A DNA stretch of 64,000 bases from an uncultured Gammaproteobacteria bacterium (GCA_964588165.1 CAZPMS010000006.1:3425-67424); one strand, 5' to 3'. Counted from the stretch's first letter, positions 32,035 through 34,371 are shown. Numbers and translations: made by a program. Notes: a model not told the origin generated them from the letters alone.

Positions 32035-32132
32035 TGGCAGGGATTTGCCCCGCTTTTCGTGAAAGGCGGGATAAAAACCCAGACCAACGGTTTTGGACCC
32101 AGCCCTTCGCGAAGGGCTGGGTGGAGACCCTC
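32035..32132 (-). pseudogene. ghost of tRNA-Trp 3' half carrying two GC hairpin insertions
   Basis: Minus strand GAGGGTCTCCA[CCCAGCCCTTCGCGAAGGGCTGGG]TCCAAAACCGTTGGTCTGGGTT[..CCCGCCTTTCACGAAAAGCGGGG]CAAATCCCTGCCA aligns to the tRNA-Trp anticodon stem through CCA. The 3' acceptor strand is mostly deleted. Confidence 0.75.
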
Positions 32133-32148
32133 AAAAATCATATTATTT

Positions 32149-32223
32149 TGGCAGGAGCGCTAGGATTTGAACCCAGACCAACGGTTTTGGAGACCGTCAT
32201 GCTACCATTGACACCACGCTCCC
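32149..32223 (-). tRNA. tRNA-Trp (anticodon CCA)
   Basis: 75 nt cloverleaf GGGAGCG..ACGGT-CTCCAAA-ACCGT..CTGGG-TTCAAAT-CCTAG-CGCTCCT-G-CCA. CCA is encoded. Confidence 0.9.
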
Positions 32224-32258
32224 ATCAAAAAAATATGATTATCTTAAATTTAATCTCT

Positions 32259-32483
32259 TTAAAAGACCATGATAAGCGATCCATATTGTTTTAGTTTTCT
32301 TTCCCTCACTTTGGCATCTATTTCTTTCTGATACGCTTCATAATAAAACAATTTGGGATTTTTCATCCGTTTAGTAGTATACACTTTTCCACTTTTATGT
32401 TCAGACAATCGTCTATTTAGGTTATTAGTATACCCTATGTATATTTTCCCATGATCATCAAGTTGTAAATAAACATAATACAT
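32259..32483 (-). CDS. small GIY-YIG nuclease-family protein (COG2827-like)
   Basis: 74 aa. YVYLQ..GKIYIGYTNNLNRRLSEH..YYE. Ends 36 nt upstream of tRNA-Trp on the same strand. Confidence 0.8.
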   Translation of the reverse strand: MYYVYLQLDDHGKIYIGYTNNLNRRLSEHKSGKVYTTKRMKNPKLFYYEAYQKEIDAKVRERKLKQYGSLIMVF

Positions 32484-32552
32484 AATCGCTTTTCTTAATT
32501 CTTAAAAATAGATATCAAAAAACACTACTTACCGATTACTGTTTACTAATAA

Positions 32553-32963
32553 CTAATTTCTCAGATACTGTTCAAGATTTAAATCATCAATAAGTTCTGG
32601 AAATTTCTTTAGCAAATAAACATGGCGATCTGTTCTTTCACCGGTAGCCTCATTAAACAGTGGGTTGCTGCCGGTATATACTGTATCTTTACTGTTACCG
32701 TATTTATTCAGGTTTTTTTCTTCCAGCCATTGGTCTATTTTTTCTTTGCCTTGTGAAGTGAGTTGAGCCACGAAATCATCAGCCCATCCTTCACCCTGTT
32801 CTTCCCACCAGTTTTGAGCTTCATCCAAACCTTGGTTGATTAGTAAAGGAGTTTTTTCTTCAACTTTAGTTTGCCAAGAAGCCAGCCAGGCAGAAATATC
32901 TTCATGCCAGATAAGGCCGACTAAAGCACCCATTATTATTATGAATAAAAGCGTCTTTATCAT
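32553..32963 (-). CDS. hypothetical secreted/anchored protein
   Basis: 136 aa, N-terminal hydrophobic helix, Trp/Glu-rich. Confidence 0.5.
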   Translation of the reverse strand: MIKTLLFIIIMGALVGLIWHEDISAWLASWQTKVEEKTPLLINQGLDEAQNWWEEQGEGWADDFVAQLTSQGKEKIDQWLEEKNLNKYGNSKDTVYTGSNPLFNEATGERTDRHVYLLKKFPELIDDLNLEQYLRN

Positions 32964-32981
32964 ACTTTTGATAAATTTAGC

Positions 32982-33137
32982 TTATTTAGTTTCTTTGTGG
33001 AGGGTATGTTTTTTACAATGTTTACAGAATTTCTTAAGTTCCAATCTTTCCTTTAAAGTTTTTTTGTTCTTTCTGGAATATTGGTTGACTCTTTTGCACT
33101 CTGTACATTCTAACTTTATCAAGTTATCTTGCGACAT
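32982..33137 (-). CDS. rpmG: 50S ribosomal protein L33
   Basis: Not in the ORF track (51 aa): [51 protein letters not shown]. Has the CxxC...CxxC zinc ribbon and the LHKETK end typical of L33. Confidence 0.9.
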
Positions 33138-33211
33138 AGTATTTTTAGTTAAATTACAAATTATTTAATGGCCGCGCCATGAAGTTTATGAGCGCAGCGA
33201 ATAATACTTCA

Positions 33212-33286
33212 TGGAGCCGAGAAGAGGAATCGAACCCCCAACCTACAGTTTACAAAACTGTTGCTCTACCATTGAGCTATCTCGGC
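33212..33286 (-). tRNA. tRNA-Thr (anticodon UGU)
   Basis: 75 nt GCCGAGA-TA-GCTC-AATGGTA-GAGC-A-ACAGT-TTTGTAA-ACTGT-AGGTT-GGGGG-TTCGATT-CCTCT-TCTCGGC-T-CCA. Confidence 0.9.
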
Positions 33287-33308
33287 GTGTATCTATTTTT
33301 AAAATGTT

Positions 33309-33415
33309 CCTACAGTTTATGCCGCCTTTAGGAGGTGGCAAAACTGTTGCTCCCTGCCCCGTTTACTCCAAACAAATGTGAGGAGTTATGCGGGGTACCA
33401 TTGAGCTACAACGGC
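33309..33415 (-). pseudogene. ghost tRNA-Thr(UGU), 5' two-thirds, different acceptor (GCCGTTG), two hairpin insertions
   Basis: GCCGTTGTAGCTCAATGGT[43-44 nt hairpin 33353-33396]GAGCAACAGTTTT[GCCACCTCCTAAAGGCGGC 33321-33339]ATAAACTGTAGG. T-arm and 3' acceptor are missing. Confidence 0.8.
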
Positions 33416-33553
33416 TCGTTAGACTCACGATGCCTCTCAACTTCGTTCGAGACACTCGACTTCTTCTTAATATATCTCATTATATATCTCATTAATAAAT
33501 TATGGTCGTAGGCCACGAGCGTAGTATCGAACAAAGTGAGATACGAAGTCGAG

Positions 33554-33638
33554 TGGTGGGCCGGGCAGGATTCGAACCTGCGAAGGCAGAGCCAACAGAT
33601 TTACAGTCTGTCCCGTTTGACCGCTTCGGTACCGACCC
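33554..33638 (-). tRNA. tRNA-Tyr (anticodon GUA), class II with long variable arm
   Basis: 85 nt GGGTCGG..ACAGA-CTGTAAA-TCTGT-TGGCTCTGCCTTC-GCAGG-TTCGAAT-CCTGC-CCGGCCC-A-CCA. Confidence 0.9.
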
Positions 33639-33882
33639 ACAAATTTTTAACTAGCTCCTTAAAGGCTCTTCCTCCTTTATAAGATTTTATCAGAAGCTCT
33701 CTTTTATATGCATCTTGTTTAGAAAAATATCTTTCCGAATAAACCAACTTCCAAGGGACACCTGATTTTGTTGATTTTACAAAACCTTTATTATGTCTAG
33801 CTAAACGATTAAATAAATTCTTACAATGACCTGTATAGTATCTATCTAAAGATTTACTATGCAATATATAAACTATAAACAT
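33601..33882 (-). CDS. small GIY-YIG nuclease-family protein whose 3' end is encoded by tRNA-Tyr
   Basis: IVYILHS..RYYTGHCKNLFNRLARH. ATG at 33882 (the track uses GTG at 33885). The last 38 nt are tRNA-Tyr positions 1-38, and the stop TAA is the GUAAA of the anticodon loop. Confidence 0.8.
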   Translation of the reverse strand: MFIVYILHSKSLDRYYTGHCKNLFNRLARHNKGFVKSTKSGVPWKLVYSERYFSKQDAYKRELLIKSYKGGRAFKELVKNLWVGTEAVKRDRL

Positions 33883-33896
33883 CACTTTTCATTTAA

Positions 33897-33995
33897 GATT
33901 TATGCCCGCCTATGGCGGCACCCCGCCGTAGGCGGTGGCAGTCTGTCCCGTTTATCCCGCCAAAGGCGGCGATTTGACCGCTTCGGTACCGACCC
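33897..33995 (-). pseudogene. ghost tRNA-Tyr 5' half (positions 1-41) with hairpin insertions in the D-loop and anticodon loop
   Basis: GGGTCGGTACCGAAGCGGTCAAA[TCGCCGCCTTTGGCGGGAT, TTT duplicated]AAACGGGACAGACTG[36-nt double hairpin 33903-33938]TAAATCT, then diverges into the GIY-YIG gene. Confidence 0.8.
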
Positions 33996-34086
33996 GATGG
34001 AGCCGTTGTGCGGACTCGAACCACAAACCCCTTCCTTACCCCCGCAAGATTTCGTTTCACTCAATCTGCGGGGCAAGCATGGAAGT

Positions 34087-34202
34087 ATATCCTGCCAATA
34101 GCCTGGAGCCGAAACGGGGATTCGAACCCCGGACCCCTTCCTTACCATGGAAGTGCTCTACCAACTGAGCTATCTCGGCGCCTGGCTATTGGCAAAAAAT
34201 AA
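34087..34202 (-). mobile_element. 116-bp insertion unit: intact tRNA-Thr(GGU) bracketed by 11-bp inverted repeats, 4-bp target duplication
   Basis: IRs (plus strand) are tgccaatagcc 34093-34103 and ggctattggca 34184-34194. The flanking direct repeat is aagt at 34083-34086 and 34203-34206, which corresponds to ACTT of the outer tRNA at positions 26-29. Confidence 0.7.
34104..34179 (-). tRNA. tRNA-Thr (anticodon GGU)
   Basis: 76 nt GCCGAGA-TA-GCTC-AGTTGGTA-GAGC-A-CTTCC-ATGGTAA-GGAAG-GGGTC-CGGGG-TTCGAAT-CCCCG-TTTCGGC-T-CCA. Confidence 0.9.
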
Positions 34203-34318
34203 AAGTGCTCCCTGCCCCGCTTACTCCGAACAAAAGTAGGAGTTATGCGGGGTACCAACTGAGCTACAACGGCAATAATGTTTTTTTAAAAAAACATATT
34301 CTTATGGCATAACTTCTT

Positions 34319-34371
34319 TCTACCCCAGCCAAAGGCTGGTCCGCCTCTGACGGAAACTGAGCTATGTCGGC
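34319..34371 (-). pseudogene. third tRNA-Thr-like 5' fragment (acceptor GCCGACA) with a twin hairpin in the D-loop
   Basis: GCCGACATAGCTCAGTT[TCCGTCAGAGGCGGA][CCAGCCTTTGGCTGG]GGTAGA, then decays. The perfect palindrome ATGTTTTTTTAAAAAAACAT (34279-34298) lies downstream. Confidence 0.65.

Follow-up and report, generated by a model that had tools for sequence, protein, structure and literature searches.

Why do the short GC-rich hairpins that interrupt broken copies of transfer RNA (tRNA) genes lie in the loops of the cloverleaf and hardly ever in its stems? This question is raised by a stretch of 64,000 nucleotides (nt) from an uncultured Gammaproteobacteria bacterium (GCA_964588165.1, CAZPMS010000006.1:3425-67424), the whole of which is called the window here, with a GC content of about 35% and with most of its genes on the minus strand. 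Every intact tRNA gene of the window is adjoined by at least one broken copy, called a ghost hereafter, and the hairpins are inserted in these ghosts, among which small open reading frames (ORFs) for GIY-YIG nucleases also occur. The preference for loops is far beyond chance and is recurrent in many genomes. The explanation to which we give a somewhat better than even chance is that the hairpins are a small mobile palindromic element with a sequence-defined target, which is tolerated only in redundant tRNA copies.

Hairpin insertions in the tRNA ghosts

The window was read directly on the minus strand, where the tRNA genes, ghosts, inserts and GIY-YIG ORFs described below are located, and each intact tRNA was aligned to its flanks by spliced alignment; the tRNA positions of the inserts were assigned from the structure strings of ARAGORN. 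The final aligner worked with raised penalties, seed chaining and permissive dynamic programming having joined unrelated fragments. First of all, the ghost sequence to the left and right of each insert is identical, nucleotide for nucleotide, to that of the intact tRNA next to it. That is to say, the inserts are genuine insertions, as the initial annotation had maintained, and precise ones, and the intact neighbour is the empty site. Moreover, the tRNA cluster is the same base for base in contigs assembled independently from five metagenome samples, so the structures are not assembly artefacts. Look-ups of the exact proteins of the cluster returned only identical copies of the locus from the five assemblies and no empty sites. 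Such relatives as were found belong to the Patescibacteria. From Rfam only the five intact tRNAs were obtained, with nothing further at E <= 10 in the 2.5-kb region; its tRNA model does not align to the ghosts because the inserts are too long.

The tRNA-Tyr(GUA) gene (33557-33638), which like the other intact genes was called by both ARAGORN and Rfam, is accompanied by a ghost of its positions 1-42 (33896..33995) that is 100% identical to it outside two inserts. One of them, a 22-nt hairpin with a TAAA tail (33954..33975), is located in the D-loop, its junction being ambiguous over AAA. The other is a 36-nt double hairpin of the kind called family A below (33903..33938), which separates anticodon bases 1 and 2 at ACTG^TAAATCT (the caret marks the junction), and the same element is found at the same site in about 25 other genomes. 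The GIY-YIG ORF in the Tyr ghost follows Tyr position 42; such larger inserts, unlike the hairpins, are not in loops and do strike stems.

A ghost of positions 1-45 of tRNA-Thr(UGU) (33309..33415), with the acceptor sequence GCCGTTG, lies 22 nt upstream of the intact gene (33215-33286), whose acceptor is GCCGAGA. Spliced alignment places a long hairpin of 43 nt, tailed by CAGG, where its D-loop ends (33353..33395), and a 19-nt truncated family-A hairpin (CCACCTCC...GGCGGCA; 33320..33338) in its anticodon loop at TTTTG^TAAA, the site at which full-length 35-nt copies are present in locus L039 and in metagenome loci.

The tRNA-Thr(GGU) is nested: an outer, complete gene (33998..34273) is split by three inserts. 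In its D-loop there is a 42-43-nt hairpin with a CAGG tail (34211..34252), of the same family and at the same site as in the Thr-UGU ghost, and since the two also share the acceptor GCCGTTG, they may be one event. The anticodon loop holds a 37-38-nt hairpin (34041..34077), which reads CCCCGCA...GCGGGGCAAG on the plus strand and is therefore antisense to the tRNA. The third insert is a cassette of about 116 nt at position 26/27-29 (34087..34202), in which the intact tRNA-Thr(GGU) (34107-34179) stands between 10-bp inverted repeats (GCCAATAGCC/GGCTATTGGC). The acceptor GCCGTTG of the window's Thr ghosts is that of the intact Thr-GGU genes of three relatives, L007, L017 and L035, while the intact copies of the window carry GCCGAGA. 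The differing acceptors, and the position of the working copy inside the old gene between the inverted repeats, thus mark replacements rather than simple duplications; new copies with a different acceptor stem have taken the place of the old Thr copies of the window, and the nested gene shows that a tRNA gene can be replaced by a new copy inserted within it. A third Thr fragment (positions 1-23; 34319..34371) contains a 30-nt double hairpin (34325-34354) in its D-loop.

Downstream of the intact tRNA-Trp(CCA) (32152-32223), a gene flanked by a 9-bp leader/trailer inverted repeat, spliced alignment recovers a ghost of about positions 25-61 (32041..32133) with two 28-nt hairpins. The one in the anticodon loop (32098..32125) is a 13-bp perfect palindrome with TCCA repeated at both junctions, and the one in the T-loop (32048..32075), flanked by TTTG and AAC, reads CCCCGC...GGCGGGATAAA on the plus strand. 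Finally, a weak tRNA 5′ fragment (GCCGGGTAGTT...CAGTA; 48908..48953) upstream of the intact tRNA-Asn (48815-48886) contains a 30-nt double hairpin (48913-48942), which is flanked by GGGTAGTT and CAGTA only. It had initially been described as lying in the D-arm loop of an Asn ghost. When the fragment is aligned to tRNA-Asn, the insert lies between D-stem bases 3 and 4, 1 nt from the loop; the identity of the fragment as Asn is weak, no Asn ghost is called here by the aligner (the fragment is too short), and the sequence resembles a Thr-type 5′ end, as in L079, no less than Asn.

Most ghosts are truncated (Tyr 1-42, Thr-UGU 1-45/46, Trp about 25-61), and the suggestion that their folding may still be under selection therefore does not hold for them; only the outer Thr-GGU keeps a full cloverleaf. 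It gives a cloverleaf both ways: a perfect ARAGORN cloverleaf with an entirely Watson-Crick acceptor stem when the inserts are removed, and a predicted cloverleaf with two extended arms (z = -3.8) when the two hairpins are kept.

Loop bias, hairpin families and the junction motif

Hairpin-loop junctions make up about 42% of those available in the ghosts, and for the 8-9 independent events of the window a p of about 1e-3 to 4e-4 is obtained. The initial annotation had placed ten of ten inserts in loops and had argued from this number; nine do lie in D-, anticodon- or T-loops, the tenth (48913-48942) is at the D-stem/loop edge, and the ten are not independent, yet the bias itself is replicated in 71 classes of inserts. 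The latter come from a comparison set of 80 species-level genome loci encoding GIY-YIG homologues, which span many classes of Patescibacteria as well as Ignavibacteria/Melioribacteraceae and which, together with the window, form 81 sources and 608 kb. Altogether 98 short inserts were found in them, falling into these 71 distinct classes. The D-loop received 25 classes (null share of junctions 23%), the anticodon loop 17 (11%), the T-loop 7 (8%), the spacer 5 (11%) and the variable region 1 (6%); 4 are at an ambiguous stem/loop edge, which has no null share, and 12 were assigned to stems, whose null share is 41%. About three of the stem classes are alignment artefacts, which persist despite the raised penalties, and each of the others is at a distance of exactly 1 nt from the end of a helix, none deeper. 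Since stems supply 41% of the available junctions against the few classes observed there, the bias is strong. The density of GC hairpins over the 608 kb is 9.1 per kb in ghosts and 0.36 per kb elsewhere, a difference of 25 times.

Nearly all junctions of the 98 inserts show an ambiguity of 0-1 nt, and target duplications are therefore not a general mark of insertion. The 3-4-bp duplications that had been noticed in the window do exist, namely AAA (TTT on the plus strand) and TCCA, but they are not general among the 98 inserts.

It could be supposed that loops are merely the AT-rich part of a tRNA, in which GC-rich repeats come to resemble insertions. This supposition, which draws on the small number of independent events in the window and on the doubtful one of its ten inserts, is considered extremely improbable. 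The flanks are identical to the intact copies, none of the 71 classes across 80 genomes reaches further than 1 nt into a helix, different phyla share the conserved hairpin family, and the same sequence stands in five independent assemblies. It was rejected as refuted by the insert classes, by their positions and by the search with the hairpin alone described below.

Family A, the most frequent insert, has a length of about 35 nt (31-38 nt) and is composed of two hairpins with a 7-bp stem each, the first of which carries a bulged A; its consensus is CCACCGCC-nnn-GGCGGGG-T[G/C]CCGCC-nnn-GGCGG[C/G]A. There are 45 unique versions in the 81 sources. The bulged A is invariant (35/35 parsed copies), compensatory double changes (C-G to T-A, A-T or G-C) occur at four pairs of hairpin 1 and at three pairs of hairpin 2, as in the Ignavibacteria with CCATCGCC/GGCGAGG, and the loop sequences are free to vary. 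Family A occupies at least 10 different sites, in D-loops, anticodon loops and one T-stem base of Ser, Tyr and Thr ghosts, mostly sense to the tRNA, and at one Ser D-loop site it is reversed or fully palindromic. The other families, found in both orientations, are a hairpin with TAAA, a long hairpin with CAGG or CAAG, and TCCGCC/CCAGCC double hairpins. The inserts begin with CCAC, CCCC or TCCC and end with GGGA, GGCA, TAAA or CAGG. A strict strand specificity was rejected on account of the reversed or palindromic copies at the Ser D-loop and of the window's inserts in the Trp T-loop and the outer Thr-GGU anticodon loop, both antisense.

The conservation of the hairpins also bears on an explanation at the RNA level, according to which fragment and hairpins would make up a structured leader serving to stabilise, insulate or regulate either the mRNA of the nuclease or the precursor of the downstream tRNA, and an insert breaking a helix would ruin this leader. 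Stem covariation together with an invariant bulged A is typical of recognition by proteins, G-T pairs on the sense strand outnumber C-A pairs by 7 to 2, family A is nearly always sense to the tRNA (14 classes are forward-only), and the extended cloverleaf predicted for the outer Thr-GGU with its hairpins agrees with such a role. On the other hand, most ghosts are so truncated that a tRNA fold is impossible, the same element occurs in tandem repeats and A-rich spacers unrelated to tRNA, the copies at the Ser D-loop are reversed or palindromic and the single-hairpin families point both ways, and solo copies lie far from any ORF. On balance we regard selection on the RNA as rather improbable.

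The inventory called for in the initial annotation was made by comparing the family-A pattern alone with metagenome contigs; the pattern matched at least 120 stretches with at least 130 copies, the ends of the element being fixed by the pattern, and the counts that follow refer to the copies among the matches listed. Clearly within tRNA fragments are 48 copies (about 40%), of which 40 are in the anticodon loop, 5 in the D-loop, 2 in the T-loop and one at a D-stem edge. The 82 copies not assignable to tRNA are found in tandem repeats, in A-rich spacers and in a few unrelated hairpin loops. The base before the junction is G in 84%, and the three bases after it are A/T in 85%, A in 83% and A in 74%; this G^WAA junction is the same in tRNA and non-tRNA contexts. 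Across 283 intact tRNAs, G^WAA falls in the anticodon loop in 69%, the variable region in 15%, the D-loop in 9% and a stem in 5%. The motif predicts the tRNAs and the sites that are struck, namely the anticodon loops of Ser-NGA, Thr-NGU and Tyr-GUA; the anticodon loop of Ser-GCU is without the motif, and in this tRNA it is the G^AAA of the D-loop that receives the insert. Of the copies in tRNA context 22/41 are followed by a GIY-YIG gene, of the others only 2/76, so the presence of the hairpin element does not depend on the nuclease gene.

According to the mobile-element explanation, short GC-rich palindromes would enter redundant tRNA copies precisely and usually without target duplication, family A being inserted right after G and before A/T-A-A. 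Within tRNA genes this motif is almost confined to the 3′ side of the anticodon loop (Ser-NGA, Thr-NGU, Tyr-GUA), the D-loop of tRNAs with a long arm and, in a relaxed form, the T-loop (TTCG^AAT). The stems, rich in GC, are without it, so that the loop-only pattern would follow from the target sequence, which exposure of the loops in a folded strand may reinforce. Purifying selection would let inserts be kept in spare copies only, because no cell would survive an insertion into a functional tRNA gene. The spare copies themselves would arise by insertion and duplication around a GIY-YIG gene of about 80 amino acids (aa), of Slx1/UPF0213 type, that adjoins tRNA genes, each event leaving the interrupted old half next to a restored whole gene; the GIY-YIG gene may thus be the generator of the ghosts.

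Several observations weigh against this explanation. G^WAA is very common in a genome of 35% GC, yet about 40% of the copies listed are in tRNA fragments, and 10 of about 13 family-like hairpins of the window are in tRNA fragments too, which the motif alone does not explain. A position-weight matrix derived from the non-tRNA contexts predicts 30% stem against about 13% observed, all at helix ends; together with the abundance of G^WAA, this means that an extended target or a preference for a folded single strand may add to the motif. The motif is established for family A only, and in the metagenome search, with its at least 130 copies listed, the element ends were set by the pattern itself; neither the 43-nt hairpin followed by CAGG nor the double hairpin in the third Thr fragment displays the motif, and the single-hairpin families lie in both orientations. 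As to the means of movement, tblastn with IS200-type TnpA gave no match in the window and 1 match (L131) in about 200 loci, the only gene consistently tied to the hairpins is the GIY-YIG nuclease, and we know of no GIY-YIG protein that moves DNA hairpins.

The targeting of single-stranded or cruciform loops, which had been proposed at the outset, is possible but not required, the sequence-defined target being the simpler cause and covering most of the effect. Among the copies listed, 8% of the non-tRNA sites have flanking stems of 6 bp or more, compared with 2.5% in controls, and because this enrichment is modest, structural targeting was not adopted as the main cause. The clearest insertion into a hairpin loop outside tRNA is seen in L091 (1100-1200; also in L177), where the 3-nt loop of an unrelated perfect hairpin of 15 bp (TCCACAGCGCGGGTT tcg|a AACCCGCGCTGTGGA) is the exact location of a family-A double hairpin.

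The GIY-YIG genes beside the tRNA genes

There are three GIY-YIG ORFs in the window. The first (74 aa; 32259..32483) lies 35 nt upstream of the intact tRNA-Trp, and a 67%-identical copy of it adjoins tRNA-Trp in L009. The second (94 aa; 33601..33885), identified with Pfam, has a domain of about 80 aa, and its last 13 codons or so run into tRNA-Tyr. The third (94 aa; 43952-44236) is placed between two class II aminoacyl-tRNA synthetase genes with no adjoining tRNA. Their E-values against PF01541 are 7.6e-12, 7.8e-13 (the Trp-side ORF) and 4.8e-17 (the third ORF). Just downstream of the third ORF a 15-mer, CTCGGAATGRCGTAG, is found and is repeated 400 nt on (43516-43530, 43920-43934; 0.01 expected), and a hairpin at 43530, GCGAGGctaaacCCTCGC, recurs at 52422.

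The GIY-YIG domain fills the protein, and no other Pfam or NCBIfam domain was found in it. When the family profile was compared with the Protein Data Bank, 1zg2 (8.5e-10) and 1ywl (1.6e-08) were matched best, followed by SLX1 chains (7e-5 to 7.5e-4) and I-TevI (0.06); judged by these profile scores, the family is closest to the UPF0213 proteins and the SLX1 nuclease domain and not to I-TevI. Homologues of the Tyr-side ORF are 79-82 aa long or end in GTEAVKRDRL, which is the translated 5′ part of tRNA-Tyr. Translated tRNA-Tyr is also found in database proteins among P0004, P0005, P0008, P0029 and P0035, and the N-terminus of P0004 is a translated ghost plus hairpin; the gene calls around GIY-YIG loci are therefore systematically over-extended.

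The arrangement recurs in the comparison loci. The ORF lies 3-25 nt upstream of a tRNA with a long variable arm (Tyr or Ser) in about 70/80 loci and just downstream of an intact Tyr or Ser tRNA in 8/80, and partial tRNA copies are present in 73/80. The recurrent order is a 5′ ghost with hairpins, then the ORF, then the intact tRNA. Several loci have in addition, behind the intact gene, a 3′ ghost with these hairpins in front of it, at times in tandem arrays. For annotation this means that the tRNA clusters of Patescibacteria and Ignavibacteria hold dead and replacement layers, which can mislead tRNA counts, give spurious ORFs and mimic introns.

Tandem structures of several kinds were seen. 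The unit of ghost, hairpins and GIY-YIG ORF is tandemly duplicated before an intact tRNA-Ser in L068 (3900-4640) and L045 (1969-2640). GACTG followed by a double hairpin and the 3′ half of tRNA-Tyr is repeated in tandem after the intact tRNA-Tyr in L079 (4330-4530) and L028 (595-742). After the intact tRNA-Tyr of L072 (Candidatus Uhrbacteria; 4425-5422) there are about twelve tandem 86-nt repeats, each of which holds the last 23 nt of tRNA-Tyr (TTCGAACCCTTCCCTGCCCACCA).

This association admits a different explanation, in which the hairpins are the terminal module of a GIY-YIG cassette: the Slx1-like nuclease would cut the exposed loops of a folded or cruciform tRNA gene, and solo hairpins would be the footprints left after the ORF and the duplicated segment were lost by repeat recombination. 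A GC hairpin within a tRNA 5′ fragment, no more than 120 nt upstream of the ATG, accompanies 65/89 GIY-YIG copies, and the start of the ORF tracks the hairpin at a distance of about 10-35 nt downstream, for hairpins in D-loops and in anticodon loops alike. The Thr-UGU ghost, moreover, is known both with an ORF (L013) and without one (the window, L022, L035, L036 and L039), and the family profile, as mentioned above, is nearer to the SLX1 and UPF0213 structures than to I-TevI. A phage parallel is provided by SegB, a GIY-YIG protein enriched near tRNA genes that drives tandem amplification of tRNA-Tyr+segB (PMC13096335). This explanation meets with the fact that no GIY-YIG gene is near 74/76 of the non-tRNA copies listed, and that many ghosts have a second or third hairpin, of another family and in another loop. 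Besides, the intact tRNA beside the ORF keeps the target, so a specific nuclease would cut its own host allele, and the protein is without a DNA-binding domain. It is held to be unlikely, though it deserves more weight than selection on the RNA.

A bolder form can be imagined, in which the Slx1-like GIY-YIG protein of 80 aa and the double hairpin with the bulged A are an unrecognised mobile system, a GIY-YIG counterpart of REP/RAYT, that would recognise folded single-stranded DNA, colonise tRNA loops and regenerate the working gene by partial duplication. It is regarded as doubtful. If true, it would turn the tRNA clusters of small genomes into nested layers of dead and replacement genes.

Returning to the mobile palindromic element, the data point to a compact and widespread selfish system of a minimal nuclease gene and a structured DNA element of 35 nt, which would remodel essential RNA genes in the smallest bacterial genomes. 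The bulged-A hairpin and the sharp G^WAA junction are concrete substrates with which recognition or movement of hairpins by a bare GIY-YIG domain could be studied.

Known systems and minor repeats

Full-text literature searches found no description of the hairpins or of the GIY-YIG/tRNA arrangement in cellular genomes. The finding would join known kinds of elements, namely palindromic mobile elements and tRNA-associated free-standing GIY-YIG genes, with a minority chance that a new system is involved. Among the former, REP/REPtron elements share with the inserts imperfect GC-rich hairpins of 20-40 nt, a conserved extrahelical base, multiple copies and frequent proximity to a small nuclease-type gene. 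However, neither end of the inserts here bears a GTAG or CGTC tag, the search for a Y1 (HUH) transposase gave nothing in the window and 1 match in about 200 loci, the associated gene is GIY-YIG, and about 40% of the listed copies are inside tRNA-gene fragments instead of generic extragenic space. Elements of the IS200/IS605 type enter on the 3′ side of a short, specific target and leave no duplication of it, which resembles the G^WAA junction and the junction ambiguity of 0-1 nt seen here; two hairpins are present in family A, and no transposase partner was found, TnpA giving no match in the window and the one match in the roughly 200 loci.

In fungal mitochondria, GC clusters, PstI palindromes and double-hairpin elements are short GC-rich hairpins in an AT-rich genome, which are regarded as mobile, often lie next to tRNA genes and can be accommodated by the variable loops of RNA genes. 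They differ in being organellar and in having sequences unrelated to the inserts; no nuclease-gene partner of theirs is known, and there are no reports of them within the loops of half tRNA genes produced by duplication.

Integrase-borne islands in tRNA genes enter at crossovers in the anticodon loop or T-loop and leave a partial tRNA duplicate beside the restored gene; they duplicate the 3′ part of the tRNA and carry a tyrosine integrase with kilobases of cargo. Here it is mostly the 5′ part that is duplicated, the 2.4-kb cluster has no integrase, and the cargo is 0-250 nt. Integrase attachment sites were accordingly rejected, the ORFs of the cluster being GIY-YIG, L33 and a 136-aa protein without domains, and the duplicated segments being mostly 5′. 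Group I or self-splicing introns were rejected as well, in view of the five intact tRNAs alone in Rfam, the insert length of 19-43 nt and the intact copy beside each ghost, and split tRNAs were considered and rejected for the ghosts. A recent survey of tRNA introns in Patescibacteria is concerned with group I introns only and does not mention hairpins or GIY-YIG genes.

SegB and the other free-standing GIY-YIG homing endonucleases of T-even phages are also encoded among or against tRNA genes. SegB is a phage protein, larger than the present one, and carries DNA-binding modules, whereas here a bare catalytic domain of about 80 aa, of the UPF0213/Slx1 branch and without an added DNA-binding domain, is found in cellular genomes (Patescibacteria, Ignavibacteria), and half-tRNA duplications and hairpin elements accompany the gene. 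Homologues of SegB show a significant enrichment at distances of up to 1 kb from tRNA genes, and SegB drives tandem repeats of the tRNA-Tyr+segB unit (PMC13096335; PMC2330249).

Some repeats of the window stand apart from the ghosts. Leader and trailer of the intact Thr-GGU form inverted repeats of 27 nt (34086-34112 / 34175-34201), 81% complementary, and those of Trp form inverted repeats of 24 nt (32136-32159 / 32217-32240), 83% complementary, with the acceptor stem included in both cases, so that the working tRNA lies in the loop of a longer hairpin; the bracketing repeats may serve as a processing stem or may be the two ends of a cassette that carries the tRNA. A perfect 11-bp inverted repeat (33453-33463 / 33545-33555; CACTCGACTTC / GAAGTCGAGTG), its arms 81 nt apart, lies between the Thr-UGU ghost and tRNA-Tyr and is unrelated to the GC hairpin families. 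Lastly, two membrane-protein genes are separated by a 60-nt spacer in which a double hairpin stands at 25193-25223 (CCAGCCaaaGGCTGG + TGAGCCtacGGCTCA); no piece of a tRNA can be recognised beside this double hairpin, one arm of which has the same sequence as the hairpin in the third Thr fragment (34325-34339).

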